Part shown: positions 39,101 to 63,457 of the stretch, in pieces
How positions within the stretch are numbered: the first letter of the stretch is position 1
Layout: each line of letters begins with the position of its first letter
Origin: Candidatus Vecturithrix sp.
Lineage (GTDB): Bacteria > Moduliflexota > Moduliflexia > Moduliflexales > Moduliflexaceae
DNA length: 64,000 nucleotides
Direction of reading: 5' to 3'
Assembly (NCBI GenBank): GCA_040772385.1
Contig: JAXGYF010000001.1
Coordinates: 5,048,545-5,112,544 of the forward strand
Program-made: the position numbers and the translations under genes
The notes under the pieces: generated by a model
The model's database searches: none
What the model was told of the DNA's origin: nothing
The model's input: the letters and a program-made list of their open reading frames with translations, nothing else

Positions 39101-39266
39101 GCCGCAAGTACGCAGCCTAATTCCTGTTGAACAAAGCCGCAGGGCGGCAGAAGAGTTTCGTGCTCCTCCCCACCATTTTTCTCTTGCCATGATCTGAACA
39201 GGTGTCATCCTCCTCCATGATGTATTCATCCTGCGTATGAACCTCATTCATCATGGAGGAGATACG

Positions 39267-40133: not shown

Positions 40134-40154
40134 GCCCCTCATCGGAGGCCCGAG

Positions 40155-41291
40155 ATGCTGGAATTGGCTGACATCTTCCAGGCCTACGGTCCCGCGTATG
40201 AGGCGAAATACGGCGACCGCATGCCGCCCAGCCATCACGACGCGCTGTGGGACATCGCCCACTGCCGCACGCCCCTGATGGGGGGCGAGGTGTTCTGGTG
40301 TGCCCAGTGCCAGGACTTTGTCTACAGTTATCATTCCTGCGGCAACCGCCATTGTCCCAAATGCGGCGGTGACCGGGCCGACGCCTGGCGCGACGCCCAA
40401 CTCAAGAAGCTGCTCCCCGTGCCGTATTTTCTCGTGACGTTCACTCTGCCCCATTCCCTCAACGCCATCGCCCGTTCCCATCAACACGTGATCGATGACC
40501 TGCTCTTCAAAACGTCCGCGGATGCACTCCACACGCTCGCCTTGAATCCGGAGTGGCTCGGCGGCACGATTGGCATGGTGGGCGTCCTCCACACCTGGGA
40601 TCGGGCGATGGGCTATCACGTGCATGTCCATTATCTTGTGCCGGCCGGGGGGATCGATCCGGGCACCGGGGCCTGGATCCCCTCCCATCCGAAATTTCTC
40701 GTGCCCGCCTCGGCCCTGCGCGAGGTCTTCCGGGCCAAATTTCGCGACGCCCTGTACGCCGCCGATTCAGCCCTCTTCGCCCAGGTCCCGCCGGAGACCT
40801 GGAGCAAACAGTGGGTCGTGCACTGCAAGGCCGTCGGAGACGGACGCACGGCCCTGAAATACCTGGCCCCCTACGTCGCCCGCGTGGCCCTCTCGAATCG
40901 GCGACTGGTGACACTCGATGAGGGACAGGTCACGTTCCGCTATAAGCCCCACACGAGGCCCTGGACGACCATGACGCTCGACGTGATGAGCTTCATGCAG
41001 CGCTTCTTACAACACGTCCTGCCCAAAGGCTTCCAGAAAATCCGGTACACCGGCTTCCTGCACCCCAACGCCCGCACCATGTTCACGGCCCTACAAGCGC
41101 AGCTCGTCGCAGAGGCCGCCTCCGAGCGTCTGCCAGAGGTGCTGGCCGCCACGTTCGGCCTGGAGATCGGCAACGGGACGCCCAACGACGACCCGCCTGA
41201 CGACCCCCCGCGCGGTTGTCCGCACTGCGGTGGTCCGCTGGCCTTCGTCGGTCGCTTCCCTCGCGCCCCCCATCGACGAGGTCCTCCATGA
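40155..41291 (+). CDS. IS91-family transposase (N-terminal Zn-binding domain plus Y2 HUH transposase domain)
   Basis: CxxC...CxxC zinc-binding region (WCAQCQD...CGNRHCPKCG), an HUH-like HVHVHYLVP, and the catalytic Tyr region KYLAPYVARVALSNRRL. Confidence 0.8.
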   Translation: MLELADIFQAYGPAYEAKYGDRMPPSHHDALWDIAHCRTPLMGGEVFWCAQCQDFVYSYHSCGNRHCPKCGGDRADAWRDAQLKKLLPVPYFLVTFTLPHSLNAIARSHQHVIDDLLFKTSADALHTLALNPEWLGGTIGMVGVLHTWDRAMGYHVHVHYLVPAGGIDPGTGAWIPSHPKFLVPASALREVFRAKFRDALYAADSALFAQVPPETWSKQWVVHCKAVGDGRTALKYLAPYVARVALSNRRLVTLDEGQVTFRYKPHTRPWTTMTLDVMSFMQRFLQHVLPKGFQKIRYTGFLHPNARTMFTALQAQLVAEAASERLPEVLAATFGLEIGNGTPNDDPPDDPPRGCPHCGGPLAFVGRFPRAPHRRGPP

Positions 41292-41708
41292 CACGACGAA
41301 TACAACAGCGGACGATTGCCCCACCACGACGGGTTCGGAAAGTCTCCATTTTTCGGCGCACCGTCCCCGTCTGCCCATCGCCCAATGATCGCCTCATCTC
41401 TGTCCGATCACCAGGTGTTCACGGCCTCAACCTTCCATCATGGAGGTACTTGTCGCGAACAACGAAGAGGCATCTTCCCCCATCTGTGCCCCGCACACCG
41501 TCTCCACACTCACGTCATTTCGGAGCAAAATCCAAATAAGACCTTCTGAGAATTTTTTCCTTGACATGATGGGAAATCGCCCCCATATAACGAGGGGTGG
41601 GCTTGTTCAACAGAGATTATGTGCCGGATACTCGTCACATGAATCTTTAATCCGTTAGAACCTCCTTATAATAAGAGAAATTTACTCAATAAATCATAAG
41701 ATTATGTT

Positions 41709-44114
41709 ATGAATATACCACCAAGATTACAACATAGAATTGTTGATTTTCTTATATCTCTTCCGAGTATTCATGATAATAATAGTCAACGATCATTAAT
41801 CTACCAAGCCGGTCTAGATACAGAGTTACAAGGTCAGATTTCATTTGATAAACCAGCTATGCAGTTTGCCCTCTTCCTTGTGTCAACCTTAATAAAATAT
41901 GGTAAACTTAGTGATGGGCGATACGCTATTGAAGCTATTTTGGAGGCAGCAAAGAATTTTGTAGGACAAGATAGGAAAATATATTGTGAAACATTGATAA
42001 ATGAACTGCATGATTATACAATTGAAAAAGCTGATACACCATTATCAGATGATATCCCATTTTTAAAAAAGAGAAATTCTATAGTAGATGCTAAATACGA
42101 TCCCAAATTAGTCACAGAAATAAGGATAACTCCACCTGACTTGACTAATCAACAACAGTTACAAAATACTGGTGATAATTCTTTTGAGATAGATGCTTTT
42201 AAATCAAAGCTCTTAGATTATGAATTGAGTCAGTTAGGCTTACCTTCCTTGATTTTCCATCGGAACAATTTAGAAAGTGAGGGATTGCAGCTTATTCGTG
42301 AGGGTATTCTGCCTGTCATTTTGATTCAAGGTCTCCCTGGCTATGGAAAGACTGTATTGCTTGGTGAACTTGCCAAAAAGATTGGCCATGAATTTCAATA
42401 TACTTTGGTGTTAAATTTTTCTGGTCCAGCTTCTATAGAACCTTCTTATGTCATCGAAGAAATAAATACATTTCTCAATAAACTTGGCCGTGGTATTGAT
42501 ACAGAAATACTCAGAAAACAGAGTACTCAACGCTCTCTTCAAATTCTTATTCCTCAGATGATGGATCTACATCTTCTTCTACTTTTAGACGCAGTAGATG
42601 GTGTACCTCCTGGACAAATTGAAACATTTTTGCAATTCTTAACGGCAACCCCTAAAAATCGACTCATTATGACCGCTCGTTATAGAATCGTAAATAGGTC
42701 GAATGCTCATATATTACATGTGCCTCCATTATCGAACAAAGAAACTGCCGATTTTGTTGAACAGTATACTAAATCAATGAAGATCGGGGTTAATATAAAG
42801 GATTTATTGGAAAAACTCCCCAACAACATTAAAGAACATCCTCAAGCATTAAGCATGATTTTAGCAAATTTAGTTGATATTCCATTTGAACTTTTAGTAA
42901 TGCAAAGCTTCCATGACGATACATTAATCCTTCAACAGTTGGCTAAAAACATCCTTCTTGCTATAGATAAGGAAGTGTTGACTTGTTTAGTATTTATGAT
43001 AGTATTAGATGATCTTGACTTTATGGATACCCTTAAAATTTTAGAAATAAATCCTCCTAAAGGTCTGGTGAATTCTATTAATCTGTTATTGGAAAAGTCT
43101 TTGATTTATCGCCATGAAAATTCTTATCGTGTGCCTTCAATTATACATGAAGGGGTATTAAATTTAATTCCTGATATTGCAGAGACTATTCTAAATCAAA
43201 TAGGTTATATCTTAGAATTAAAAATCAACAGAATGCATTTACAAAGGGTATCAGATCATTTTGATAATCTTATTCCCATAGTTGTTACTATTATTCATCA
43301 TTTTTATCAAATGCGATCTTATGAATGGGTAACTAAACTTGTTATTGATGAATTCTTAGAATTTATCAATATGCGGGGTTTTTGGAAAGAATATTGGCTC
43401 ATTTTACGAATATCTTTTGATGCTGCAAAAAGAATAAACCAATTAAATATCTTTTCCAAAATAGGGTTTAGGATTGCTCGTAAATCTTTACAAATCCACG
43501 ATATTGATACTGGGAGTCAGGTATTAAGTGATGTGGAACGAGTTATTGGTGTTGATGGTAATACAATGGAGCATGCAGAATTTTGGAGTCATAAAGCTCT
43601 TTTCACCGAATTAACTGGATATACGGAGAATGCCAAAGAAGAACTACTGAAAAGTCTCCAAATTCGAGAATCGCTCTATGATGCTGAAGGTATTGCTGTT
43701 ATCCAAAAACTTTTAGGTAATATTCATTTGCGTTTAAAAGAATCAGATATAGCACGTCAATATTATGAGTCAGCATTGATATCTATCAATGAAAATACTT
43801 CCCAATTCAAACATATTATCGAAGTGGAAACGAGTCTCGCTTTGTGTGATCTGATAGATAATAAATTGGAATCGGCTGAATCCACACTTAGAAAAGTTAT
43901 TCAAAATTGTAAGAGTAAAGGCTATTTAGCTGGACTATCAAGAGCTTACTACAATTTGGCTTTAGTACTTGATCGTCAAAAACGTGTTGCTGAAGCTTTT
44001 TATTATGCTGAAATTGCTTCTAAGGAAGCTTTAAAAACAGATAAAGATATTATACTCGGTTCAGGAATACTTATGTGGCGATTAAAAAATTTAAAAGGAA
44101 CCTCTTGTAAATAA
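41709..44114 (+). CDS. STAND-class NTPase (NB-ARC-like P-loop) with an N-terminal alpha-helical adaptor/effector-associated-like domain and C-terminal TPR-like repeats
   Basis: Walker A LIQGLPGYGKTVLLGELAKK, Walker B HLLLLLDAVDG, a helical C-terminal half with TPR-like periodicity, and a 100-aa N-terminal helical domain. AT-rich at ~36% GC. Confidence 0.65.
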   Translation: MNIPPRLQHRIVDFLISLPSIHDNNSQRSLIYQAGLDTELQGQISFDKPAMQFALFLVSTLIKYGKLSDGRYAIEAILEAAKNFVGQDRKIYCETLINELHDYTIEKADTPLSDDIPFLKKRNSIVDAKYDPKLVTEIRITPPDLTNQQQLQNTGDNSFEIDAFKSKLLDYELSQLGLPSLIFHRNNLESEGLQLIREGILPVILIQGLPGYGKTVLLGELAKKIGHEFQYTLVLNFSGPASIEPSYVIEEINTFLNKLGRGIDTEILRKQSTQRSLQILIPQMMDLHLLLLLDAVDGVPPGQIETFLQFLTATPKNRLIMTARYRIVNRSNAHILHVPPLSNKETADFVEQYTKSMKIGVNIKDLLEKLPNNIKEHPQALSMILANLVDIPFELLVMQSFHDDTLILQQLAKNILLAIDKEVLTCLVFMIVLDDLDFMDTLKILEINPPKGLVNSINLLLEKSLIYRHENSYRVPSIIHEGVLNLIPDIAETILNQIGYILELKINRMHLQRVSDHFDNLIPIVVTIIHHFYQMRSYEWVTKLVIDEFLEFINMRGFWKEYWLILRISFDAAKRINQLNIFSKIGFRIARKSLQIHDIDTGSQVLSDVERVIGVDGNTMEHAEFWSHKALFTELTGYTENAKEELLKSLQIRESLYDAEGIAVIQKLLGNIHLRLKESDIARQYYESALISINENTSQFKHIIEVETSLALCDLIDNKLESAESTLRKVIQNCKSKGYLAGLSRAYYNLALVLDRQKRVAEAFYYAEIASKEALKTDKDIILGSGILMWRLKNLKGTSCK

Positions 44115-44449: not shown

Positions 44450-46405
44450 ATGTGGAAAGAAGAGACGATAAATAAGCTTAAAATTCTTTTAGATGTTGCG
44501 AGAAGGGAGGTTCCTTATTATACAAGTATATTACCTCCAGTATCCATTCAATTACCGGATGATATTTTTGGTTACCTTAAAAATTTTCCTCTCCTTTCTC
44601 GTCAAATTTTGCAAACTCAAAAAGCACTATTATGTTCTTCACATGGAGATATATCTTCTTGGCGCAAAATACGAACCACAGGGACTACAGGTGAACCGGT
44701 AGAAGTTATTTTAAATAAAGAGACTTGGACACTTGAAAGTGAGTTGTTTGCCTCACATATAGATCGTTATTTACAACGCCTTGATTGGCATCAAAAAAAG
44801 ATATTTTATTTAAATCTACATCCTAGTGCAAGCTCCCGAACTCTTCCTTCTAAATGGCATGATGAAGCACAAATGATAAAATGGAATCTAATTCGAATTT
44901 GGCAATTATCTGATGAAAAATTTATGAATTCCATTGAATGCCTTAATGAAAGTATTATTACTACCATGGCTTCTGTCGTAGAACTCATTTGCTCTCGCAT
45001 ATTAAAATCAGGCATCATAAACAAAATTCATCCTTCCCTTATTGTTTTATCAGGAGAAACTATCCTTCCAGAGACAAGAATGCTTATAAACGAGGTGTTT
45101 AAATGTCCTGTTACCTCTCTCTATACAATGGCTGAGGTTGGAATTATTGGATCAGAACAAATAGATCCAAATGTTTATCAAGTAGAAGAATCTGCTGTAA
45201 TAGTAGAAATTGTTGACGAAAACGGTAATCGAGTTCCTCAAGGAATTGAAGGAGAGATTATTATTACCCCTTTAAACAATGTGGTAATGCCACTTATTCG
45301 GTATCGTACTGGAGATCGGGGTTATTGGGTTGACATTGATTCGTCTCCTCCAATTTTTAGATTAGTTGAGGCTCGCCGTTCCTATCACTTGATTACAGAA
45401 AATAATGCTTCGATGAACGTTGTTAGATTTACAAAGATGTTAGCTTCTCTCAATGTTGATCGTTATCGGATGGATCAGAAACAGGATGGGACTGTTATTT
45501 TCTCTTATTATTCTCAAAAGAGCGCATTTAGTGAAATGGACTATTCCCTTGTTAAATCAGTAATTCGTGGTGCCTTTGGTCCTGAAGTCAGGATAGAGTT
45601 TTATCAGGTTGAAGATCGTAACACTCTTAGTCAAGCTCCAGATCAGATTCAACCATCACGAGAATATATTACTTCTCCTAACGCGGAACCATTAGACCCG
45701 AGTTTAGTAAAATTAGCTTCTTGGCTTCGTCAACAATTATTTGATGAGATCCAGATAGATGCCGCTATTCTTACGGGCTCTGCCCTTGATCATAGGACAA
45801 CAACTCGTTTTAGCGATATTGACTTAGTAGTTTTAGTTCAGAATAATCCAATGGACTCTTATTGGATTAAGGTATCACGTAACCTTATATCTCATATTCC
45901 ACAGCTTTCCATAAATTTTGACTATATACGTGGTCTTTCATATCGCTCACCATTGCTTGCTTGTCGTTTATTATGTGAACAAATCCCAGTAATTGGTAAA
46001 GTAGATGAATATATTCTGCCATGGCCTAAACTGGAAAATTTACGACTTCAAGGATTATATTGGTCTCAAGATACTATCGGAACACTTTGGTTAAGGCTTG
46101 TAAATTTAAAAGTATTAAGTATGGATCCAATACGTGAGGCATGGATAGCTACAAAGCTTATTCTGGAGGCTCTTCGTTACCGTTATCTTGTTCGAAGTGA
46201 GCACGAGACATCATCTGTTTGCATATTAAATAAGCTAGAGAAAGATATTGAAATTCCGGATTTATGGAAAAGAGACTTATTTGACATGTTTAATGTTGCA
46301 AGAGAACATCTCCCTCCACCTCTCATTAATAGTAATATAGTTGAACATTATTTACAATTAGCTTTGTCATATATTCGTTTTATTCAGATTGACTTAATGC
46401 GATGA
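44450..46405 (+). CDS. Fusion protein: PaaK/F390-synthetase-like adenylate-forming enzyme (N-terminal ~430 aa) plus minimal Pol-beta-type nucleotidyltransferase domain (possibly followed by a HEPN-like helical region)
   Basis: ANL motifs IRTTGTTGEPVEV and IRYRTGDRGYW. A C-terminal GSALDHRTTTRFSDIDLVVLV minimal nucleotidyltransferase signature. The tail carries an RYLVRSEH R-x(4-6)-H-like motif. Confidence 0.6.
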   Translation: MWKEETINKLKILLDVARREVPYYTSILPPVSIQLPDDIFGYLKNFPLLSRQILQTQKALLCSSHGDISSWRKIRTTGTTGEPVEVILNKETWTLESELFASHIDRYLQRLDWHQKKIFYLNLHPSASSRTLPSKWHDEAQMIKWNLIRIWQLSDEKFMNSIECLNESIITTMASVVELICSRILKSGIINKIHPSLIVLSGETILPETRMLINEVFKCPVTSLYTMAEVGIIGSEQIDPNVYQVEESAVIVEIVDENGNRVPQGIEGEIIITPLNNVVMPLIRYRTGDRGYWVDIDSSPPIFRLVEARRSYHLITENNASMNVVRFTKMLASLNVDRYRMDQKQDGTVIFSYYSQKSAFSEMDYSLVKSVIRGAFGPEVRIEFYQVEDRNTLSQAPDQIQPSREYITSPNAEPLDPSLVKLASWLRQQLFDEIQIDAAILTGSALDHRTTTRFSDIDLVVLVQNNPMDSYWIKVSRNLISHIPQLSINFDYIRGLSYRSPLLACRLLCEQIPVIGKVDEYILPWPKLENLRLQGLYWSQDTIGTLWLRLVNLKVLSMDPIREAWIATKLILEALRYRYLVRSEHETSSVCILNKLEKDIEIPDLWKRDLFDMFNVAREHLPPPLINSNIVEHYLQLALSYIRFIQIDLMR

Positions 46406-49281: not shown

Positions 49282-51300
49282 CTTAATAAAATCTAATAAT
49301 GGTGAATTTCAAGATTTTGATACAAAACATCATCCAATCCTAATCTGTTCAAGATCTCTTTTTGGAGTTCTGATAGAGGCGTAAGATGACGGATTATGTG
49401 ATCCTTCAGATGAATAATTGTCAGGGTAATCCCCTCAAATGCCTTCAGCAACCGTTCGCTGGTCGGCCTGTTAGTGGTCTTTCGTATATTCTCAGGATGC
49501 AATCCTGGGAAAGCCTTCTTTTCCCGCTCTAATGAACGTCTTACAACAAACTCGATACGCGTTAACGTTCGAACTCCCAATGTCAATAAGTGGTTTAAGC
49601 CTTTGACTTGATCCGGTTCCGTCACATACATCGGAGCAATATTCAAACGGTTTTTGAGACGATCGAAGAGCCGTTCAATTCGACATTCTTGCCGGTATAA
49701 TCGTACCGCATCTTCCAAACATCACCTGTCACCGGACGTATCAGTCACGTAGGCTCTCCACCCGAACGGCTCCTTGACGTGCTCAATCTTCGCGGCATCC
49801 CGGGTAACAGCCGTGATGTGATAGCGAATGCTTTCGACCACCTCTTGTTGACGATTCGCCCCTCCTCGGCCTCGGCCCCTGTATTTCGTTGTACGCTCAA
49901 CTTCGCGTTCATACTCAACACGAAGCAGACCGTCAACCCGATGCTGCTTCTCAATCGCCTCAATGGCAGCCTTCAAACTCTGCTCATCGGTTATCTGTTT
50001 TTTCCCTCGGCCACGCGGCGGGGTAAGGGCATACAGTTTCTGCTCGGCCTGGTCCAAACGGGTATCGAACCCACGTTCCTGCTGCCCGGCATGATTGAAG
50101 GACTTGACGACCAACACCCGTTCAGTCCATTCAAGCGTCTGGCCGTTGACCACCCCGGAGCACCGACGTTCAACCTCATACCCTGCGGCCACGATGGCCT
50201 CTTCACCGTTGGCATCTGTGACCACCACAGGTTGAAGGGCTTTCTCCTTTTCCAGGGCAATACCGTCTCGAACCCACTCTGCCATCACTTCCGGCGTCTT
50301 CCCGGTTTGAGGCAGAGGGCAAAGATAATGACCGCCCAGCCCTTTAATATGCAAACGCGTCTCAATGGCACTGAGCTTGCAATCGCCAACATAGAGAACG
50401 CCCTGTCTCTCAAGGACGGCATGAATGCGATTAATCACCGGAACATATAAGCCGTCATCCGCACGCTCGCCTGACACGACATCGGTCGCTAGCGGCATAC
50501 CAAGCGGATCAAGTGCCCCTGTCATGAGCTTGATGTGAGGTAAACTCGGGTCGTCTTTACTATGACCGAATTGAAAAAGACCTCCCTCCCTCACCTCATG
50601 GTAGCCCGAAACCGTCGTCGCGTCACACCTAACGACATCCGTTTCTAAATCATAGGCACGGATGCTCTTCTGATTTAGCTCGGCCTCGATCGGTTCCCAA
50701 TACGACGGCTTGCTCAAGTTCTTCAGCAAAATACCCAGGCGGTCATCCGTAAAATCAAGCTCCCTGACAGTTTGGCCACTCACCGTGCTCAACGTCTGCT
50801 CCAGGTTCTTCACATACTGCCTGACGACGACTTTTCGATGATCGCCCTCAGAAAGAATATAGGCTAACCAGATCACCGCTGTCCAGCCCCAGCTTAATTC
50901 ACGCTGTTTCCAATGGACCGGAATATGGTTGTCGAGAACCTCAGGTAAGCCCATCTGAACCAGCACTCCAATGATTAACACAATATCATCGACCCGCTCT
51001 GAGCGAATCTCGAAGTCTTTTCTTGACTCAACGTGCTCTTTTGTTAACATACGCCTCTATACCTCCTGTGATTTTTTTCTATCATCGCCTCACAGAGGGG
51101 CATATTGCGCAAATTAAATTTTACCTGTCAAAATAAAGCGAATGATGAGTGATAATAATATTGATAAGAAGTTAACTCAAATTCCTATTTTTGTGCCTTT
51201 AAGAAGCTTTGCTGAGTCAGGCTTATCCCTATTTGAATTCATTGTTCGCCAGTTTAAAATTTGTAATTTCCCTGATGCTGGCCCTTTTATTGAAACGATC
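49282..51300 (-). mobile_element. IS1634/IS4-like insertion sequence inserted in the NACHT gene; its transposase reading frame carries an in-frame TGA
   Basis: ORFs 49722-51050 and 49293-49718 are in the same frame, separated by the TGA at 49722-49724. Together they give a ~585-aa DDE transposase-like protein (C-terminal ...GWRAYVTD and ...YRQECRIERLFDRLK). The element boundaries are approximate. Confidence 0.55.
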
Positions 51301-52274
51301 TTGAGAAAAAGAGGTAATTTTAAGCTAACACCTCAGGTTTTCGCTCGACTGAAAGAGAACAATTTACCTAAGAAATATCTGAGTAAATTAAAAAATTTGG
51401 AAAATAAAGAATTCTCTACTGAAGAAGAGCTTTTTACTAATGTCCAAACATTTGTAGATGATAATAAAATTTTTGAAGAATATAAGGCATTATTTTTGCG
51501 ATACGCAAAAAACGAAAAGTGGAAAACTATTATTTTATGTGATGGATTAGATGAAGTTCCTAAAAAAGAAGACAAACGACAGAAAATTATTCAAGAATTA
51601 ATTGATTTCAGTAATGAATTTGAGGAAAGTCAGTTTGTTATCACATGTCGTATTGCTGCCTCAGAATATCATTTTGAAGGTTTTACCTATGTTGAAATTG
51701 CAGATTTTGATGAAAAACAAATTGCCTCTTTTATTAGGAATTGGTTTATGAATAGTTCTTCATTGGCGAACAATTTTCTCGAAGAGTTTGGGAAAATTGG
51801 TAATGAACGACTTCGTGATCTTGCTAGAACCCCTCTGATTCTTACACTTTTATGTATTTCTTATGAGAACACTCTTGAACTACCAATTCGACGCTCAGAA
51901 ATTTATAAAGAGGCTCTTGATGCATTATTGGTGAGATGGAGTGCTACTCGGGGAATTAAACGAGATGAAATATATAACCATTTATCTCTTGGCAGAAAAC
52001 AACAAATGTTTGCCCGTATTGCTGCGGAGACTTTCCAAAAGAGTCAGTATCTCATTAAACAAGAAGTTCTGGAAGAAAAAATTATTAAGTATTTAAGAAA
52101 TTTACCGCAAGTAAGTATGGATGAAGAGATTAATGGAACAGCAATTCTTAAAGCTATTGAATCCCAACATGGGATTTTTGTTGAGAGAGCCCAGGGCATT
52201 TACTCATTTTCTCATCTAACCTTTCAAGAATATTATGCCGCAAAATATATTTATGAACACCTTGATAAAGATAT
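51142..52274 (+). pseudogene. C-terminal fragment of the NACHT NTPase gene (Walker B ILCDGLDEV, TCR sensor, TPLILTLLC), truncated at its 3' side by IS91-family copy 2
   Basis: The 51142-52341 ORF lacks a Walker A motif. Its last residues (...LNKAAGRQKSFASLPTIFLLP) are encoded by the IS91-like left end. Confidence 0.6.
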
Positions 52275-52415
52275 GTTGAACAAAGCCGCAGGGCGGCAGA
52301 AGAGTTTCGCGTCCCTCCCCACCATTTTTCTCTTGCCATGATCTGAGGCGGTGTCATCCTGCTCCATGATGTATTCATGAGATCTCTGAACCTCTTTCAT
52401 CATGGAGGCCCTCCT

Positions 52416-53282
52416 ATGACCGCTCTCAGACACCGATTCATCGAAGACCTGCAGTTGCAAGGCACGTCTGACCGGACGCAACAGGCGTACGTCCGCGCGG
52501 TGCGGATGCTCGCCGAACACTTTCACACCCCGCCGGATCAGCTCACGGACGAGCAGATTCGGCAGTATGTCCTGTACGTCAAAAACACCCGACACTGGTC
52601 GTGTTCGACCATGAAACAGGCCCTCTGCGCCATCAAAACCTTCTACACCCAGACCGTACACCGGGAGTGGGGTCTGCTGGACGTGATTCGCCCGCCAAAA
52701 TCGCAGACCCTGCCCGATGTCCTGACCCACGACGAGGCGCAACGACTGCTTCAGGCGGTGCGCCTGCCGCACTACCGGCTGTGCTTGACGACCATCTACT
52801 CGTGTGGCTTGCGCCTGACTGAAGGCGCCCAGCTCCGGGTGACAGACATCGACAGCGCCCGGATGCTCGTGCATGTCCGCCGCGGCAAAGGGGACAAAGA
52901 CCGGTATGTGCCCCTCCCACAGCGCACCCTGGAACTCCTGCGCCAGTATTGGCTCACGCACCGCCATCCAATCTGGCTCTTTCCGGCCGGTGGGGCCGGC
53001 CCGGTGCAGCGTCACCCCGCCTCGACGCCCATCTCCGTGAGCACGCTGCAAAAAGCCTGTCGCCTCGCGAAGCAGGAGGCGGGCATCACCACACGGGTGT
53101 CGGTCCACAGTCTGCGCCATGCCTACGCCACCCATCTGCTGGAAGCCGGGGTCAGCCTGCGGATGATTCAAGCGTATTTGGGACATACGTCGCCCCAAAT
53201 CACGGCCCGTTACACCCATCTCACCTCCCAGGCCCAGACCAGCGCGGGCGCCGTCATTGACGAGCTGATGCAGGATCTGTAA
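52416..53282 (+). CDS. Tyrosine recombinase of IS91-family copy 2
   Basis: Paralog of the 39267-40133 gene. Confidence 0.8.
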   Translation: MTALRHRFIEDLQLQGTSDRTQQAYVRAVRMLAEHFHTPPDQLTDEQIRQYVLYVKNTRHWSCSTMKQALCAIKTFYTQTVHREWGLLDVIRPPKSQTLPDVLTHDEAQRLLQAVRLPHYRLCLTTIYSCGLRLTEGAQLRVTDIDSARMLVHVRRGKGDKDRYVPLPQRTLELLRQYWLTHRHPIWLFPAGGAGPVQRHPASTPISVSTLQKACRLAKQEAGITTRVSVHSLRHAYATHLLEAGVSLRMIQAYLGHTSPQITARYTHLTSQAQTSAGAVIDELMQDL

Positions 53283-53309
53283 CCCTCCACACATCTTAGG
53301 AGGCAACGG

Positions 53310-54446
53310 ATGCTGGAATTGGCCGACATCTTTCAGGAATATGGCCCTGCGTATGAGGCGACGTACGGCGACCGCATGCTGCCCAGCCACCGGGATGCGC
53401 TGTGGGATATCGCCCACTGCCGCACGCCTCTGATGGGGGGCGAGGTGTTCTGGTGCGAGCACTGCCAGGATGTTGTGTACAGCTACCACTCCTGCGGCAA
53501 CCGCCATTGTCCGAAATGCGGCGGCGACCGGGCCGATGCCTGGCGCGACGCCCAACTCAAGAAGCTGCTGCCCGTCCCCTATTTTCTCGTGACCGTCACC
53601 TTGCCCCATGCCCTGAATCCGATGGCGCGATCGCACCAGCAGCTCGTCTATGATCTGCTGTTCAAAACATCGGCGGACGCGCTCCAGACCCTGGCCCTGA
53701 ATCCAGAGTGGCTCGGCGGCACGATTGGCCTGGTGGGCGTCTTACACACCTGGGATCGGGCGATGGGGTATCACGTGCATGTCCACTATCTTGTCCCAGC
53801 CGGCGGGATCGATCCGGACACCGGAGCATGGATGCCGTCGCATCCGAAATTCTTGGTCCCCGCTTCGGCCCTGCGGGAGGTCTTCCGGGCGAAATTCCGC
53901 GACGCTCTGCACGCCGCCGATCCGGCCCTCTTCGCGCAGGTCCCACCCGAGACCTGGAGCAAACAGTGGGTGGTGCACGGCAAGGCCGTCGGAGACGGAC
54001 GCACCGCCCTGACATATCTGGCCCCCTACATTGCCCGCGTCGCCCTGTCCAATCGGAGACTGGTCGCCCTGGAAGCCGGGCACGTCACGTTCCGCTATAC
54101 GCCGCGCACGAAGCCCTGGAGGACCATGACGCTCGACGTCATGCGCTTCATGCAGCGCTTCTTACAGCATGTGTTGCCCAAAGGCTTCCCAAAAATCCGG
54201 TATACCGGCTTCCTGCACCCCAACGCCCGGACCACGCTGGCGGCCCTCCAGGAGCAGCTCGCCACAGAGGCCGCTGACGAACGCCTGCCAGCGGCGTTGG
54301 CGGCCACCTTCGGTCTGCAGATTGGCGCCAGCGCGTCCGACGACGCCCCCCCTGACGAGACGCCACGCTGTTGTCCGCACTGCGGCGGGCCGCTGGCCTT
54401 CATCGGCCGCTTCCCGCGATCCCCTCATCGCCGAGGTCCCCCATGA
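53310..54446 (+). CDS. IS91-family transposase, copy 2
   Basis: Paralog of the 40155-41291 gene. Confidence 0.8.
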   Translation: MLELADIFQEYGPAYEATYGDRMLPSHRDALWDIAHCRTPLMGGEVFWCEHCQDVVYSYHSCGNRHCPKCGGDRADAWRDAQLKKLLPVPYFLVTVTLPHALNPMARSHQQLVYDLLFKTSADALQTLALNPEWLGGTIGLVGVLHTWDRAMGYHVHVHYLVPAGGIDPDTGAWMPSHPKFLVPASALREVFRAKFRDALHAADPALFAQVPPETWSKQWVVHGKAVGDGRTALTYLAPYIARVALSNRRLVALEAGHVTFRYTPRTKPWRTMTLDVMRFMQRFLQHVLPKGFPKIRYTGFLHPNARTTLAALQEQLATEAADERLPAALAATFGLQIGASASDDAPPDETPRCCPHCGGPLAFIGRFPRSPHRRGPP

Positions 54447-54829
54447 CACCACGAGCCCGACACCTCACCGTCATCTTCCCACAACCGGTTCGGAAAATCC
54501 TCTTTTTCCGGCGCATCGTCCTCGTCTGCCCATCGCCCGGAAATCGCCTCATGGCGGTGCGAATACACCATACTCACGGCCTCGATATTCCCTTCTGGCG
54601 GCACTCGCCGCGCGCATGCAAGGGGCACATTCCGCCATTCCCGAGGATTTTTCAGCCTCCACAGCCTGGTCATTTCGGAGCAAAATCCAAAGAACACATT
54701 CTCCATATTTTTTCCTTGACATGTCGGCAGATCGCCCCCATACAAAGAGGGGTGGGCTTGTTCAACAGAGATTATGTGCCGGATTCTCGTCACATGAATC
54801 TTTAATCCGTTAGCAGGGAAAAGGTGAGA

Positions 54830-55060
54830 AGGAAGACGAGCACGCACGACACATGCAACACAAACGTCGCGAAACAAAAAACTTGACACCCGAAGATCGA
54901 AGAGAGAACATGTAAGCAAGAGACAACGACACAAAGAAACACCCAATACACAAACAGGCAAGCAAGAAACACACAAGGAAGGAAGAAACAAACAAACAAG
55001 TAAGTAAGTAAGCAAGCAAGAAAGCAACCAACAAACAAACAAGCAACAAGCAACAAGAGA
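54830..55060. repeat. AC-rich low-complexity / microsatellite-like tract (CAAACAAG, AAGCAAGC, AAGTAAGT units)
   Basis: About 230 bp of strand-asymmetric A+C-rich simple sequence, immediately right of IS91-family copy 2 and upstream of hicB. Confidence 0.7.
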
Positions 55061-55497: not shown

Positions 55498-55511
55498 TGA
55501 GCGAAGAGCAG

Positions 55512-55621
55512 ATCTAACAATGGCTTGCAGGTGACGCGGGAAGGCGGGCGGAAAAATTGGTTGCTATCATTCAAGCTTAGTTGCGCCCGCCTTCCCGCGC
55601 CCCTGAAGCGGGGCGTTCGAT
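55512..55621 (+). other. attC-like site (ATCTAAC ... GACGCGGGAAGGCGGGCGG ... GCCCGCCTTCCCGCG ... GGGGCGTTCGAT)
   Basis: A perfect RYYYAAC 5' core and the cognate GTTCGAT at the 3' end. Nested inverted repeats. It begins 15 nt after the hicA stop. Confidence 0.6.
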
Positions 55622-55778
55622 TTCCCCATGTATAGTTCAAGCCAAATCGTCATCATTATAAAATCATATCGGCATGACAAACAAAGTTGACAAATTTCTT
55701 GATGCCTGTATAGTGAAATTAATTTGTTTGCTGATAATGCAAAAATGAATCAGGTGGCATATAGGTGAATGTAAGAAT

Positions 55779-56087
55779 ATGAATATACTACAACAAATAC
55801 CTTGGCTTGAGATAGGGCTATATTTTAGCATGATAATGGGTATGGCCGCCAAATATCTCTATGATGAACTTAGTTTAGTCAAAAGAAAAAAGTTCAGGTT
55901 CCGTAAGTGGCAATTTCTTCGACCTATTATCATTTCTCCAATTGTGTTTGGGGTAATTTATGGTCTTACTGATGAGACTACTTCTCCTATACTCCTATTC
56001 ATGTTTTCTTTTCAAAATGGTTTCTTTTGGCAAACAATTTTAAATAAACCTGAAACAAGAGATTCAAGTAACTTTGATGCTTTCTAA
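55779..56087 (+). CDS. Small integral membrane protein (3 predicted TM helices)
   Basis: Hydrophobic segments LEIGLYFSMIMGMAAKYLY, IISPIVFGVIYGL and ILLFMFSFQNGFFW. It overlaps the start of the next gene. Confidence 0.45.
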   Translation: MNILQQIPWLEIGLYFSMIMGMAAKYLYDELSLVKRKKFRFRKWQFLRPIIISPIVFGVIYGLTDETTSPILLFMFSFQNGFFWQTILNKPETRDSSNFDAF

Positions 56088-56109
56088 AACTTCTATGAGG
56101 GTGAATACA

Positions 56110-56988
56110 ATGCCAATAATTCCAATACCTTATCATTTCAGTACAACAATCACACAAAAGGATCTATTCATTAACCGGAAAAATGATATTGGTAAAATTG
56201 TTCGAGCATTATCTGGATTTCAGATGAACAACATTTCTGTCATTGGCGAAAGGAAAATAGGAAAATCTTCGTTGCTTTATTATATTTCGAAGTATGAAGA
56301 ATTGCCAGATATAAAGACAGTATTCTTCGATTTTCAAAATAAAGCTGAAGCAAAGATTTTTTATGAACAAATTTGCTCAGAACAAATTACGGATTCTTCA
56401 CAAAAAATAGCGTATTTTCTTGATGAACTTGAATCCGCCTCAAGCTTCGGAGAAACTTTTTTTAAAAAGTTACGCTCTGTTGCCAATAAACCTAATATTG
56501 CGTTAGTTACAGCATCAAGAGCCCCACTATCTACAATTTGTCCCGAGTTTTCTGATGATTCCTCTCCCTTTTATAATATTTTTGTTCCACAAAGTTTAAC
56601 GAATTTTTCTAAGGAGGATACTATCGAACTAATAACAGAAACACCAAAAAGAGTGGGATTGAAACTAAAGCCCGAACAATTTTTTACTCATGACGAAATT
56701 AGATTAATTGTTAAACTCTCAAATTGCCACCCATGGAAGATTCAACTCTACAGCTACTATTTCTTTGAAGCAAAAGTCAACAATATCATCGAAAAAAATG
56801 AAGTTAAGCTGCAAATTAGAGAGGCTTTAAAAATGCAAAGTGGGCAAAAAGAATTGCTGCCCGTCTTAAATTCAGATATTGATATTAGAGAAGTTCTGTC
56901 TACAGATGTTAGCCCTTTGATAAAAAATCTTTTCCAGTTTTTGATCGAAATAGCAACTGAATATGCCACGAAAAAATATATCGGCTAA
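56110..56988 (+). CDS. P-loop ATPase of the Arch_ATPase / AAA-like family
   Basis: FINRKNDIGKIVRAL...VIGERKIGKSSLLYYI (Walker A) and IAYFLDELE (Walker B). The start could be the upstream Met at 56074. Confidence 0.5.
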   Translation: MPIIPIPYHFSTTITQKDLFINRKNDIGKIVRALSGFQMNNISVIGERKIGKSSLLYYISKYEELPDIKTVFFDFQNKAEAKIFYEQICSEQITDSSQKIAYFLDELESASSFGETFFKKLRSVANKPNIALVTASRAPLSTICPEFSDDSSPFYNIFVPQSLTNFSKEDTIELITETPKRVGLKLKPEQFFTHDEIRLIVKLSNCHPWKIQLYSYYFFEAKVNNIIEKNEVKLQIREALKMQSGQKELLPVLNSDIDIREVLSTDVSPLIKNLFQFLIEIATEYATKKYIG

Positions 56989-57022
56989 ACTTCCTTATAT
57001 GTTAAACATATTCAATCCATAA

Positions 57023-57233
57023 TTGTGATGTGAAGGCACATCGTGGAGTGTTTTGGTGAAAGCACTCCATAAAAATTGAAAAAGGATGTACTGCAATCAC
57101 ATCGTAGCCTATTATGATCCTGTTTTTTCGTAATATGGCGTTTTTTCAGATAAGCTGCTGATACGCCGACTCTACGAAGTGCTTGCACGAATGTAGTAAA
57201 TCATCCTAAGCTACGATGTGCCTTCACATCACA
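57023..57233. repeat. MITE-like ~210-bp element bounded by perfect 20-bp terminal inverted repeats GTGATGTGAAGGCACATCGT / ACGATGTGCCTTCACATCAC
   Basis: A perfect 20-bp inverted repeat at 57023-57042 and 57214-57233. A third partial copy, CACATCGTAGC, lies inside. Confidence 0.55.
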
Positions 57234-57254
57234 CATAATAATATTCATATAATT

Positions 57255-58835
57255 ATGATCTCGTTAAATAAAGTACTAGAGCTTCTTGGAATTATCAAGC
57301 AATTGCGTTCATGTGAAACATTAGCGGAAATTGCTAAACAAGAGGATAATTTACAGAAAGCAAGTGTAGGGTTACTATTCAAGAAAGAACTAAATACATT
57401 ACGAAAGATTGTTGCCGATATTAACAAGTTTTTGACAGTCAGCAACAAGATTGAGAAGCATGAGCTATTAGAAGAAATAGTTGCTTTAATCGAAGGAACT
57501 GAATATTATCTAAACCCTAAGTTGGCTGGTGTAATTTATGGACTGATTTATCTTGTAATTTTTGTTGTATTGGCTAGTATAACTATAACTCCATTTCAAG
57601 CGATTATTATCGTTTTTTCATTAGGAGTTTTATCCTATTTTTCGATGGGATTCATTTATACGCTTTACATATTCCCCTTCTATAATAAAAGCTTATCTTT
57701 GATCTTGAAGGAAGAAGAATTACTTATTGCTTCTTTAAATATCAAACACATCCCGAACAATTATATAGTAGGACCTCCTATTCGGCCTGGAAAACATAAT
57801 CTGTTCGTTGGGAGGGAGTTAATTTTTAGGAGGATTTTGGGGTTATTAGAGAATCAATTTGATAAACCATCTATTATTCTACACGGGCAACGAAGAATGG
57901 GCAAAACCTCAATACTATATCACATAGAAGACTATTTCAAAAACTCCTCTACTAAATTTAATATTATCACAATATTGGCCGATATGCAATCTGTTACGCA
58001 AGTCAAAAATGTAGGTGAGTTTCTTTATAATGTCTGTCGAATAATTCGAAATACAGTAAGTAAATATGGAGTAATGGTAGAACTCCCCACTGTTGAATCT
58101 TTTGAAAAACGACCGTTTCTTAGATTTGACGAGTTTTTGGATGAATTAACTAAGCTCATATCTCCGTATAGTTACATCTTTTTAATGTTAGATGAATTCG
58201 AGGAAATAGAGTATAAAATAAAGCAAGGTATCTTTCAAAAAAATCTGCTGGAAGAATTTCGAAGTATAATGCAACATCGAGAAAAGCTGTTCCTAATTTT
58301 TTCAGGTTCACATGCTTTGAATGAGATGTGCAAAGATTTTTGGTCTCCATTTTTCCACATAGCAGAGCCTATTAAAATAGGGTATTTATCTGACGAAGCT
58401 GCAACAAGACTGATAACCACTCCATGGGAGAATTTTCCCATTAGCTATGAGTTAGCCGCAGTGAAGGAAATTATGCGAATTACCGGCAATCAACCGATGC
58501 TAATTCAGGTTATTTGTCGTACACTCATAGATCAAATGAATGAACAGTTGGATTCACAACAAATTCTTCCATATAAGTTTCCAAAACTTAGAATCCAAAA
58601 TGTACATGAGGCGATTGGGCAAAGTCTGACTGGAAGTTATTATTTTGAGGCAATGTGGAACAGTTTGGAGAAATCAGAGCAAATGCTATTAACAAATATG
58701 GCAAGAGGGAAGGAAGAGACATCTCAGAATATTGACGATGATGTAGTACATTCGCTTCAAAAAAAGGAATTGCTGACCAATGATAATAAATACAGAATTC
58801 CCTTGTTGCATGATTGGATTCGAGAGAATAAATAG
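57255..58835 (+). CDS. Membrane-anchored P-loop ATPase (N-terminal TM helices plus Arch_ATPase/AAA-like domain)
   Basis: LFVGRELIFRRILGLLE...ILHGQRRMGKTSILYHI (Walker A), IFLMLDEFEE (Walker B), and TM helices at about residues 90-150. Confidence 0.5.
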   Translation: MISLNKVLELLGIIKQLRSCETLAEIAKQEDNLQKASVGLLFKKELNTLRKIVADINKFLTVSNKIEKHELLEEIVALIEGTEYYLNPKLAGVIYGLIYLVIFVVLASITITPFQAIIIVFSLGVLSYFSMGFIYTLYIFPFYNKSLSLILKEEELLIASLNIKHIPNNYIVGPPIRPGKHNLFVGRELIFRRILGLLENQFDKPSIILHGQRRMGKTSILYHIEDYFKNSSTKFNIITILADMQSVTQVKNVGEFLYNVCRIIRNTVSKYGVMVELPTVESFEKRPFLRFDEFLDELTKLISPYSYIFLMLDEFEEIEYKIKQGIFQKNLLEEFRSIMQHREKLFLIFSGSHALNEMCKDFWSPFFHIAEPIKIGYLSDEAATRLITTPWENFPISYELAAVKEIMRITGNQPMLIQVICRTLIDQMNEQLDSQQILPYKFPKLRIQNVHEAIGQSLTGSYYFEAMWNSLEKSEQMLLTNMARGKEETSQNIDDDVVHSLQKKELLTNDNKYRIPLLHDWIRENK

Positions 58836-58853
58836 ATAATCATAGACTAAGAA

Positions 58854-58995
58854 ATCGAACAAAGCAATGCACGTGACTTCGGCCCGCTGTCGCCAATTTC
58901 CGCATACGCCTCTCGCATAACAGTTTGGTGGCAGCATCAAATGCGTTGCCCGTCGTGAGGAGCGGGCCAAAGCCACGTGATTGCAGGCGTTAGGC
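58854..58995 (+). other. attC-like site of a second type (ATCGAAC ... CACGTGACTTCGGCCCGCT ... AGCGGGCCAAAGCCACGTG ... GCGTTAGGC)
   Basis: It ends in a perfect GTTRRRY core, GTTAGGC, with an 18-bp inverted repeat inside. It starts 19 nt after the stop of the 539-aa gene. Confidence 0.5.
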
Positions 58996-61094: not shown

Positions 61095-61101
61095 TAAGAA
61101 C

Positions 61102-61215
61102 GCCGAACAAGGCGTTTGCAGCGGACTCCGGGAAGGCGGGCGGAAAAATTGGTTGCTCTTTCCCGAAGTTTGGTTGCGCCCGCCTTCCCGAAGCCGCTGA
61201 AACGCGGTCATTAGT
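61102..61215 (+). other. attC-like site (GCCGAAC ... GCGTTTGCAGCGGACTCCGGGAAGGCGGGCGG ... CCGCCCGCCTTCCCGAAGCCGCTGAAACGC), 3' core degenerate or disrupted
   Basis: The 5' half is typical of the family. A 3' GTTCGGC-like core is not found, and the sequence runs into the GC-rich block. Confidence 0.45.
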
Positions 61216-61995
61216 GTGCCAAGCGAAGCTTGGTGTATCTTGCAGGGTGCAAGTCCCTGCCGGGACCCACCCGTAGCGAGTGTTGCGTCATGGGCGGACA
61301 TGAGAGTGGTGATGGTATGCAGGTCTTTGAGGCACGGAAGGGGACACCCGGACACAGACGACTCCTGAAACCTCAAGACCTCTCATGGAACACGCATGAC
61401 GAAGCGTCCACAGCGAATCGTGCAGGCCGTAGGGGAGACCGTGACTCCCTGAACGTTGACATCGCTCCGAACTCGCTCTTTCAGTCGTCGAGGGAGGTCA
61501 CGCAGACCGACGACTCTCTCAAGCATCCGTGAGGAGAGCATGGCCACCGCTGAGGCGACCCGTGAGTGCAAGGATGTGGCGGGCTGGCGGAGTTCACTGG
61601 AAACGGTGGCATGGATGAAGAGATACAGACAAGCACGTGGGAAGCCCCGGAGATTGTCTCACATTCCAACGTGAGAACAGACGTGGAGTCCCCTCACCGG
61701 GAAAGCGTCTGCTCCGAGGTGGCGGATGCCCTCGTCGTACTCCGAGGAGGAGAAAGACCGCTCCATGGGAAAGGGGGGCACGGGAGGACGTAGCCGTACA
61801 GGAAACGTCTGCCGGACATGCAGGGTCGGAGACCAGGAGCCAACCTCACTGCGGGGAAGAGCACATCAGGAAATGAAGTGACTTGTCTGACACGGAAGCG
61901 AGTCCAACCGAGGAGCCTTGTGAGGGAACACTTCACGCAGGGATCTGTGCGGGGGGAGCCGGGTGACCGGCTTTCCTACCGCGTCGCCCTCTTTT
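61216..61995 (+). other. GC-rich (~58%) ~780-bp segment without a credible ORF, wedged after an attC-like site; candidate ORF-less group II (class C-attC-like) intron or other structured RNA / foreign fragment
   Basis: Only short overlapping ORFs on both strands. The 5' end begins GTGTGCC..., and a GNRA-capped hairpin GAGCCGGGUGACCGGCUUUC lies near the 3' end. The composition is discordant with the flanking ~38% GC cassettes. Confidence 0.3.
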
Positions 61996-62038
61996 AGGAT
62001 ATTAACATGGATTTAAGAATCAGGAGATCGAGATAATC

Positions 62039-63457
62039 ATGAGTAAGCTTTTGAGAGTATGGATGTACATCAAAACAAGGAAACTGAGATCGGTTGTCAT
62101 TCTTTTCTTTCTGTGTATTCTTTTCGGCTCGACGTACTTCTCTTTCGAATATGGATACATGTTTCACCCTCCAACAGCCAGGATTCCTCTTGGAAGCCAT
62201 TTTCCAGATCTGCCTCCCGATGAACGGCATCATTACCTTGAGTTTTTCGTTGATCATGACGAGCCCTCTAGGGGGACATTTATGGGATTTTTTCGGCTCA
62301 GTCCGAATTTTCAAAAAGGCTCGGAAGTGATTTTCTATCTCACAGACGGTCAGCAGGAAAAGGTTGGCCTTTCACCATGGGACGAATATTTTGAAGGAAA
62401 ACTTGAAGGGCTCTCTTACGTCACCATCTGCCGACGAGGGCATTATCCGATATTGTTTCCTGAGGTGTTCGATGCCGAGGGAAAGCCAGATTTGAAGGAG
62501 GCACTTCAGCTCTATGGAACATCCCAACAAATTGAAGACATTGAAACTGTGCGCTTGGCGATGCTTGCCAAAGGACTCATTCCTCCTCATGGAAAAATTA
62601 TGCTCTACGGAACCTCTGGAGGAGGGATTCTTATCGAGCAATATCTCGCGAAATATGGGAGAAACGTCTCACGCGCTTTGATCGAAGCCTCATACGGTGG
62701 CGATGTCTTCAGAAAACGAAAAGGCTCATATGACGACTGGCTCCTAGACAGGATGGCAACGCACTCTCCAGAGACATTGGCAAAACTCACTGAAATCGTT
62801 GAGTCGGGAGATGTGGATCGAACACAATTTTCCTTCCTGCTTCAGCGGCCATGTTATTTTTCGTTTCAAGGTGAACAATTCGTTCTGGACCTCATTGACG
62901 ATGTGCACTCCGGAGGAAAATGGGCATACTGGAAAGCGTTATGTCATCCTGGCTACAATTTCACGGTTGTTGATTTCATGATGCAGCTTCCCATTGAATT
63001 GGCCGTGAAGGTCAGATGCTATGAAATACTGGGAGAACGTATTGTTGAATACCGGAAGAGGACGTCGAAGCGAATCAATTTGATGTATGAATGGGCACAG
63101 CATACGATTTCTGATTTCATCACGGCGAGGGAAATGGGAGCAATCAGCGCTGTGAATCTTGGAATTGAGGGGCAGCGACAGGCGTTCACAGGGGAAATTG
63201 TCTTCATGGCCGCCGATGGCGACCACGTGTTCCCAAGTGAAGCCGTTCAATTGTCCGCCATGGAATACCCGACATCCCGTTTCGCCCTTTTTCATGATAC
63301 TCACATCTTTGGAGTGGAGGACAACCAACAGTATTATCGTGATGTCCGCCGAACGTTCTTCGAGCATGGACTACACTCACCTGAATTCGACACGGTGATG
63401 TCTGATGGACGTCAATTGAACAGGGAAGAGAGTCGAACACATGATGGCAGCTCTTAA
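62039..63457 (+). CDS. Alpha/beta-hydrolase-fold protein with N-terminal TM/signal anchor (GxSxG nucleophile elbow GTSGG)
   Basis: IMLYGTSGGGILIEQY and an N-terminal hydrophobic segment VVILFFLCILFGSTYF. Confidence 0.45.
   Translation: MSKLLRVWMYIKTRKLRSVVILFFLCILFGSTYFSFEYGYMFHPPTARIPLGSHFPDLPPDERHHYLEFFVDHDEPSRGTFMGFFRLSPNFQKGSEVIFYLTDGQQEKVGLSPWDEYFEGKLEGLSYVTICRRGHYPILFPEVFDAEGKPDLKEALQLYGTSQQIEDIETVRLAMLAKGLIPPHGKIMLYGTSGGGILIEQYLAKYGRNVSRALIEASYGGDVFRKRKGSYDDWLLDRMATHSPETLAKLTEIVESGDVDRTQFSFLLQRPCYFSFQGEQFVLDLIDDVHSGGKWAYWKALCHPGYNFTVVDFMMQLPIELAVKVRCYEILGERIVEYRKRTSKRINLMYEWAQHTISDFITAREMGAISAVNLGIEGQRQAFTGEIVFMAADGDHVFPSEAVQLSAMEYPTSRFALFHDTHIFGVEDNQQYYRDVRRTFFEHGLHSPEFDTVMSDGRQLNREESRTHDGSS

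Follow-up and report, generated by a model that had tools for sequence, protein, structure and literature searches.

A soluble and a membrane-anchored STAND ATPase paired in a chromosomal integron cassette, a candidate membrane-associated conflict module

We analysed a 64-kb stretch of Candidatus Vecturithrix sp. DNA (contig JAXGYF010000001.1 of assembly GCA_040772385.1, positions 5,048,545 to 5,112,544 of the forward strand), which we call the window, and within it a three-gene integron cassette encoding a membrane protein of 102 aa (tm102) and two P-loop ATPases of the type known as signal transduction ATPases with numerous domains (STAND), one soluble (A) and one membrane-anchored (B). The host is probably a filamentous, Candidatus Vecturithrix-like member of the Moduliflexota of the KSB3 type. 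Searches started from either ATPase showed that A and B are co-inherited as a self-contained pair, and from comparison with related loci we consider, with moderate confidence, that the cassette is a minimal membrane-associated two-STAND conflict module, which would probably act by abortive infection. A first-pass annotation of the same DNA had already suggested a membrane-associated defence or abortive-infection module, and the domains fused to A elsewhere, the Trypco1/Pepco genes upstream of A and the caspase genes beside tm102 homologs lend that suggestion support at the level of sequence. The three genes are as follows.

55779-56087, + strand: tm102, a small membrane protein of 102 aa
56110-56988, + strand: A, a soluble STAND/Arch_ATPase-like ATPase of 292 aa with no effector domain
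57255-58835, + strand: B, a membrane-anchored STAND/Arch_ATPase-like ATPase of 526 aa

A and B form a conserved gene pair

Eighty metagenome loci were fetched by a profile of A homologs alone (alignment A1), and in these A-anchored loci the 526-aa B query found neighbouring open reading frames (ORFs) by phmmer, with E values down to 5e-68. Where enough sequence was available, a B-type gene lay adjacent to A in 35 of 44 loci, downstream in 24 and upstream in 11. From the opposite direction, a profile of B homologs (alignment A3) was run against the species-representative genomes of GTDB, in which at least 580 B loci were confirmed; an A-type gene stood next to B in 57 of the 62 best B-anchored loci with room for one, in 56 cases upstream of B, and the median gap was 117 nt. 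The pair occurred in Anaerolineae and other Chloroflexota, in Cyanobacteria (Nostocales, Oscillatoriales and Microcystis), and in Beggiatoaceae, Myxococcota, Acidobacteriota, Omnitrophota, Aminicenantes and Planctomycetales, a patchy distribution concentrated in filamentous and multicellular bacteria. One canonical pair is that of Nostoc carneum (AP018180.1, 49.5-66.7 kb, locus L131). The flanking genes were not conserved, the largest flank family being present in 7 of 80 loci and confined to one clade, and no relatives of the B profile were found on 2.9 million viral contigs. The co-occurrence analysis that the annotation had proposed as a check thus showed that the two ATPases belong together, and the loci did not correspond to the contrary case that the annotation had named, housekeeping ATPases with a conserved context outside mobile regions.

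Both ATPases keep the STAND core

A and B are related to each other (23% identity over 215 aa, E 2e-6) and gave weak Pfam matches to AAA_14, AAA_22, nSTAND2, AAA_35, ATPase_2 (Arch_ATPase) and nSTAND1. These matches are weak but consistently to P-loop families, ATPase_2 among them, in agreement with the earlier description of two Arch_ATPase-like P-loop proteins. The gathering threshold of ATPase_2 (PF01637) is 33.2 bits; A reached 14.8 bits and B was not listed, while relatives matched the family at E values up to 0.001. The resemblance to ATPase_2 is real, and formal family membership falls short of the threshold. A passed the cut-off of nSTAND2 marginally (25.9 vs 24 bits), and some relatives scored much better (58 bits). 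The fold is STAND/ORC-like, and the closest solved structures are the archaeal ATPase_2 proteins 2qen and 2fna and ORC/Cdc6.

Both proteins carry the Walker A (GxxxxGK[ST]) and Walker B (hhhhD[DE]) motifs by which STAND proteins were defined (Leipe et al. 2004), GERKIGKSS and FLDELE in A and GQRRMGKTS and MLDEFE in B, and in both the NTPase core is followed by helical and winged-helix domains with a G-x-P-like motif. The shared signature FxGRE...GxRRxGKTS...hhhhDE given in the annotation is right in outline and departs from the sequences in detail, since A reads LFINRK...GERKIGKSS...FLDELE and B reads LFVGRE...GQRRMGKTS...MLDEFEE. Across the homologs, Walker A was kept in 72 of 76 A and 43 of 46 B proteins, and the DE of Walker B was 98% conserved in B. 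In the window proteins the key Walker residues are K52 in A (292-aa numbering) and K217 and D313/E314 in B. No C-terminal repeat sensor (TPR, WD40 or LRR) was found in A or B by Pfam; both proteins end shortly past the winged-helix domain. Hydropathy and the model together divide B into about 85 soluble helical residues, a hairpin of two transmembrane (TM) helices at about aa 88-140, and the ATPase with its helical and winged-helix domains from about aa 175. The N-terminal multi-TM region first ascribed to this protein is thus instead a soluble helical stretch followed by a single two-helix hairpin.

Full-size relatives carry effector domains and larger membrane regions

Typical B proteins have 750-1000 aa; about 70 soluble residues lead into a membrane region of 5-10 TM helices rich in GxxxG, which a linker connects to the C-terminal ATPase, and no Pfam family covers the TM part. 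At least two TM helices precede the P-loop in 64 of 97 B homologs, and others have TIR, CHAT or GAF domains. The domains of the A partners (n=53) were Trypsin_2 in 7, Trypsin in 6, EAD7 in 5, Peptidase_C14 in 4, TIR_2 and Metallophos in 3 each and CHAT in 2; in the same set HTH_24 was found in 6 and HTH_3 in 3, and some B proteins had HTH_IclR. Trypco1 was encoded by 6 of the 28 genes directly upstream of A, and in some canonical loci the Trypco1 gene stands 5' of a trypsin-A fusion. Full-size versions of the module have a killing or signalling domain on A and often, before it, a small gene for a pore-forming substrate (Trypco1/Pepco). By comparison the window copy is reduced: canonical A partners have 350-470 aa or more, vs 292 aa here, and canonical B proteins have 5-10 TM helices, vs 2.

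Short forms also exist elsewhere. Among close relatives of A, which are about 300-360 aa long, some end in one or two TM helices, some have a DUF4062 domain, and others precede the gene of a conserved 2-TM protein. Because a B with a short N-terminus (P0002, 54% identical) and a 291-aa A (P0099, 48% identical) are found in other metagenomes, the short forms appear to be maintained lineages. The gene after the closest A homolog (locus L003) was checked as a possible GAF-fused B; it is cut by the contig end and did not match P0029.

As a separate observation, short A-type ATPases, with or without B, are directly followed in loci L006, L007, L016, L017, L022, L024, L026, L028, L032, L041, L049 and L076 by a conserved protein of 220-260 aa in which a beta-rich ectodomain, about 110 aa long, lies between two TM helices (alignment A6). 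This "2-TM plus Ig-like" protein was considered as the counterpart of tm102 and, compared by architecture, was rejected, the two architectures being different.

Gene models and a MITE-like insertion between the ATPase genes

The three ORFs of the annotation are present, at 55779-56087 (102 aa), 56074-56988 (304 aa) and 57216-58835 (539 aa), and the starts of the two ATPase genes were revised. The 304-aa form of A begins at TTG 56074. The ATG at 56110 has the sequence GAGG 8 nt before it and corresponds in alignment to the position where the closest homolog begins (MTKLNIPYHF vs MPIIPIPYHF), and from these features A most likely starts there and has 292 aa. With this start A begins 22 nt after the tm102 stop, without overlap. 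The start of the 539-aa form of B lies in the following insertion.

57018-57239, no strand: MITE-like insertion, a 210-nt element (57024-57233) with a 6-bp duplication, CATAAT

The element is bounded by perfect 21-nt terminal inverted repeats (57024-57044 and 57213-57233) and by direct copies of CATAAT at 57018-57023 and 57234-57239, and it lies between the ATPase genes, as had been noted. Short and non-coding, with no ORF, and having both terminal inverted repeats and a target-site duplication, it fits a miniature inverted-repeat transposable element (MITE). It inserted into a former A-B spacer of 50 nt and disrupted no coding sequence; the MITE hit the cassette later and left all three reading frames intact. 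At its left end a hairpin is followed by a T-run. No second copy was found in the window, and TGTGATGTGAAGGCACATCGT is a sequence by which copies can be counted genome-wide.

Position 57216 is inside the right repeat, and the first 13 codons of the 539-aa frame are in the MITE. After removal of the element and one copy of the duplication, an in-frame TAA stands 11 codons 5' of ATG 57255, and the codons between them include no start. Because the upstream start is MITE sequence and the TAA precedes ATG 57255, native B has 526 aa, not 539. The database proteins P0001 (526 aa) and P0098 (292 aa) are identical to the B and A of the window.

tm102 belongs to a family encoded beside caspase genes

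The gene for tm102 is unannotated in the source genome, and four start variants of the protein were absent from the protein collection. An ORF of its length has a chance probability of about 0.001 in DNA of such composition, its codon-position GC content matches that of gene A, and its homologs comprise 542 representatives, the best 63% identical; because of these three properties tm102 is very likely a real gene. The annotation had described a three-TM protein, and hydropathy upheld one strong hydrophobic segment clearly and gave weaker values for the other two. Most homologs are about 150 aa long and have two extra N-terminal TM helices, an (I/V)x(K/R)G loop and then a tm102-like module. tm102 corresponds to this conserved C-terminal three-segment module and starts 7 residues past the loop. 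The motifs of the family are PW.E..LY..M..GM.AKY, KP..VSPIVFG and FSFQNGFFWQT (nearly invariant).

Wherever the gene context was available, the homolog's gene began 0-2 nt after a gene whose product ends in a caspase domain (Peptidase_C14), in many cases a WD40-caspase gene, and some homologs are fused to CHAT-like or TIR-like domains. Independently of the cassette, the tm102-like family (loci L165, L167-L172 and L176; proteins P0148-P0331) is large, has no Pfam assignment and is translationally coupled to the 3' ends of caspase genes. It looks like a further family of protease-coupled membrane effectors beside Pepco and EACC1. tm102 was not taken as EACC1 itself, whose one TM helix bears alpha+beta extensions (Kaur 2020). 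P0150 and P0162, examined as independent short forms of tm102, were rejected, being cut short by a transposase or a frameshift. The link between tm102 and the ATPase pair was seen in this window only, where it consists of the tight spacing and of the slot before A that is held elsewhere by Trypco1.

The three genes occupy one integron cassette

The edges of the cassette and a promoter-like site within it are given below.

55508-55620, + strand: upstream attC, R'' ATCTAAC ... R' GTTCGAT, left cassette edge
55687-55714, + strand: promoter-like site TTGACA-16-TATAGT, 65 nt 5' of the first gene (tm102)
58846-58988, + strand: downstream attC, ending in GTTAGGC, right cassette edge

A strict stem-score scan for attC gave 1 site and was replaced by alignment of a repeat family combined with folding. 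The family, of about 113 nt, has plus-strand copies at 46.4, 55.5, 59.9 and 61.1 kb, and their alignment showed four attC copies of one family, whose stems differ by compensatory changes and whose ends are R''(..AAC) and R'(GTT..). The bottom strand of the upstream site folds into an imperfect hairpin with bulged bases (-31.4 kcal/mol, z -4.75), and that of the downstream site into a long imperfect hairpin, also with bulged bases (-32.4 kcal/mol, z -3.46). Hairpins with extrahelical bases and R''/R' cores, the marks of an integron cassette, are thus found on both sides, as the annotation had anticipated when it placed attC-like sites there. Because there is no attC between these two sites, the three genes form one cassette of 3.4 kb (55.6-59.0 kb).

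Two tyrosine recombinase genes of the integron-integrase type (intI) lie upstream of the cassette, at 36022-37008 (- strand) and 37270-38322 (- strand), and both products pass the integron-integrase model TIGR02249, scoring 440 and 406 bits where 265 is required. The IntI protein falls into a 90% cluster together with an integron integrase from Candidatus Vecturithrix sp. (phylum Moduliflexota), which points to a filamentous host of the KSB3 type. The further attC copies at 46.4, 59.9 and 61.1 kb form an array adjoining intI, and the intI genes together with the attC hairpins bear out carriage of the module as an integron cassette. The GC content of the cassette region is 32-38%, vs 45-55% in the housekeeping part of the window.

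A typical integron cassette has a single promoterless ORF and about 0.5-1 kb. The present cassette, with three ORFs, 3.4 kb and a promoter-like site, departs from this type, and neither its size nor the promoter-like site excludes it from being an integron cassette. The promoter-like site has 11 of 12 matches to the consensus, the best in the region, as a consensus match only; the total number of such sites in the region was not above that in shuffled sequences. Without the MITE the cassette has about 3.1 kb, the smallest version of the A-B module that we have seen. The same array also holds HicAB, in a neighbouring cassette, an EAD8-NACHT-TPR protein, a NACHT fragment and a NucS-like protein.

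Proposed function and alternative explanations

In the reading that we favour, B would be a membrane-resident sensor or anchor. When triggered, for instance by a phage attacking the envelope, B would co-assemble with A in an ATP-dependent way and an effector would be released; ATP-dependent co-assembly is known in other STAND proteins. With no enzymatic effector on the A of the window, the effector would probably be tm102, in the Trypco1/Pepco slot, possibly together with the hairpin of B, and the expected outcome would be membrane damage, death of the cell and an aborted infection.

Several observations weigh against this reading. The assignment of sensor and killer roles to A, B and tm102 is inferred, and we found no experimental evidence on the A-B pair in the literature. 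Defence models of PADLOC-DB v2 and NCBIfam (June 2026) gave no match to the window proteins or to canonical pairs beyond weak hits to the P-loop only (PDC-S01, PDC-S27, mad8 and DS41_1). A phmmer search of tm102 against all ORFs of the 160 A and B loci found no match, and because its homologs are absent from these loci, the membership of tm102 in the module rests on its position. The hairpin and T-run of the MITE might stop transcription ahead of B. Finally, the window copy is without an effector domain on A and without most of the TM region of B, so it may be a degenerate or rewired derivative.

A more elaborate proposal, which we regard as rather unlikely, is that A and B build a heteromeric, membrane-embedded STAND "resistosome", in which the polytopic TM-STAND would sense envelope attack and recruit the soluble effector STAND, and that tm102 would be a "pre-cleaved" pore former gated by the ATPase pair, with proteolysis dispensed with. 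tm102 could be "pre-cleaved" because it starts 7 residues past the loop at which full-length members of its family might be cleaved.

Decay is an unlikely explanation of the reduced copy, in which case the cassette would be a non-functional remnant whose A has lost the effector and B most of its TM region, and in which the MITE has uncoupled B from the operon. The short A and the two TM helices of B are in keeping with decay, as are the terminator-like hairpin that the MITE brought into the A-B spacer and the disruption of nearby cassettes by copies of an insertion sequence (IS). Yet the three ORFs are intact, with all the conserved ATPase motifs, the MITE hit no coding sequence, and the short forms P0002 and P0099 are maintained in other metagenomes.

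A role outside conflict, with the ATPase pair serving in membrane signalling or protein quality control, we also judge quite unlikely; B would then sense the state of the envelope and A would relay it. Such a role would suit an ATPase core that is a generic AAA+/ORC-like switch, the helix-turn-helix domains on some A partners and HTH_IclR on some B proteins, and the want of a match in the defence libraries. Against it stand the domains fused to A, which are a typical conflict set (trypsin, caspase, TIR, CHAT and EAD7), and the Trypco1 neighbours, as well as the patchy distribution, the unconserved flanks and the carriage in an integron cassette of foreign GC content.

An addiction module of the toxin-antitoxin kind, stabilising the cassette array with tm102 as a membrane toxin restrained by the ATPases, seems very improbable. 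Toxin-antitoxin cassettes are frequent in chromosomal integron arrays, HicAB is encoded in the neighbouring cassette, and tm102 matches the conserved C-terminal module of its family, full-length members of which begin with two more helices; elsewhere, however, A-B pairs occur without tm102 and outside integrons, and the toxicity of tm102 is putative. The least probable explanation by far, that two unrelated ATPase genes and a TM gene share the cassette by chance, could draw on the lack of any other locus that links tm102 with A or B, but for A and B it is refuted by their adjacency in 80-92% of independent loci in both search directions.

Other features of the array and the window

The two intI genes share a 107-nt stretch of 79% identity (repeat D14); two neighbouring intI genes are unusual in one integron. 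Between the integrase genes and the first copy of an IS element, at 38928-39098, a palindromic unit of about 20-25 nt (TTTCGTATATACGAAAC-like) occurs six times; these units may form an array for protein binding in or close to attI. The IS element, of 2.5 kb, is present in two copies of about 88% identity (39125-41658 and 52274-54813), both inside the cassette array, and encodes a tyrosine recombinase and an IS91-family Y2 transposase (Zn_Tnp_IS91 and Y2_Tnp). The first copy directly follows the presumed attI region, and the second abuts the NACHT (EruA-like) fragment at 51142-52341. Between the end of the second copy and the start of hicB, a 240-nt A/C-rich low-complexity tract, (CAAA/CAAG/GAAA)n, with strong strand skew, occupies 54820-55060.

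An AT-rich cassette at 41709-44114 encodes the EAD8-NACHT/NB-ARC-TPR protein, of 801 aa, a second STAND-type conflict protein in the array. The ORF after it (44450-46405) joins a portion resembling AMP ligases to a Polbeta nucleotidyltransferase portion. At 61.1 kb (61096-62030 region) the attC copy is without the usual GTT... end and ends in ...GCGGTCATTAG; on its 3' side about 0.8 kb of DNA with 58% GC and no long ORF is followed by a 472-aa ORF (62039-63457), which had no Pfam or NCBIfam match. A search of the whole window with Rfam found no family at gathering score, group II introns included. In the housekeeping part (1356-30429), seven copies of a 37-nt palindrome (AAAAACCGGGTTTCTTCAAGAAACCCGGTTTTT-like) stand at gene ends, and three tandem 63-nt GC-rich hairpin repeats lie at 23515-23703; these palindromes and repeats look like host-genome elements of the repetitive extragenic palindrome or terminator type.

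Comparison with known systems

To our knowledge, STAND/NLR-type immune ATPases are almost wholly single soluble proteins. The pairing of a soluble with a membrane-embedded STAND is now documented in at least 580 species-representative genomes, and it is absent from the defence libraries that we searched. Because no PADLOC or NCBIfam model covers it and the literature on a named "transmembrane STAND" pair holds a passing mention only, the A-B pair is not a member of any named system. On sequence grounds it would be a STAND-based conflict system with two-STAND precedents.

The nearest precedent is the nSTAND2 two-gene system (Kaur, Iyer, Burroughs and Aravind, eLife 2021, PMC8195603, Fig. 6C), a mobile, mostly gammaproteobacterial operon whose two STAND NTPase products are predicted to form a hetero-oligomer, one of them having eroded NTP-binding motifs and being fused to HEPN or GT4. 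The A-B loci share with it the conserved operon of two adjacent STAND genes. Since A and B both keep Walker A and Walker B, we set the pair apart from that system; in addition, our census of A and B domains contained no HEPN or GT4, one member of the pair is membrane-embedded, the effectors are proteases, TIR or TM proteins, and the hosts are filamentous or multicellular taxa.

Pepco (Trypco1/2), with which Trypco1 has been equated, is a protease-activated pore, and the sensors that go with Pepco proteases have been listed as including "transmembrane STAND ATPases" (Evans et al., bioRxiv 10.1101/2025.11.14.688446). Canonical A-B loci resemble Pepco and EACC1 modules in having a small pore-forming gene followed by an effector-bearing STAND (Trypco1, then trypsin-A), and tm102 homologs resemble EACC1 in being paired with caspase genes. 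The window cassette differs in that Pfam found no protease in it by which a pore could be gated, and tm102, a helical three-TM protein, is unrelated to both Pepco (a beta barrel) and EACC1 (a single TM helix). Moreover, the Pepco and EACC1 systems that have been tested use single Avs proteins, not a soluble and a membrane STAND. From Avs itself the pair is distinguished by its two genes and by having no C-terminal TPR-like sensor domain, and the Avs models of PADLOC matched neither the window proteins nor canonical pairs. The archaeal members of PF01637, PAB2304 (2qen) and SSO1545 (2fna), are single, soluble proteins of uncharacterised function, and unlike them the window proteins fall below the Pfam cut-off.

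Defence systems have been described in mobile integrons ("Mobile Integrons Encode Phage Defense Systems", bioRxiv 10.1101/2024.07.02.601719). Like those cassettes, the present one has a candidate defence function in an attC-bounded unit downstream of intI; unlike them, it is a candidate only, is unusually large (3.4 kb, with three genes, a promoter-like site and a MITE inside), and belongs to the chromosomal array of a non-proteobacterial host. It would extend the idea of integrons as stores of defence genes to a Moduliflexota-like chromosomal array, and it offers a compact construct with which to ask whether the module confers phage resistance, how two STAND proteins cooperate at a membrane, and whether the FSFQNGFFWQT family is a new cell-killing effector.

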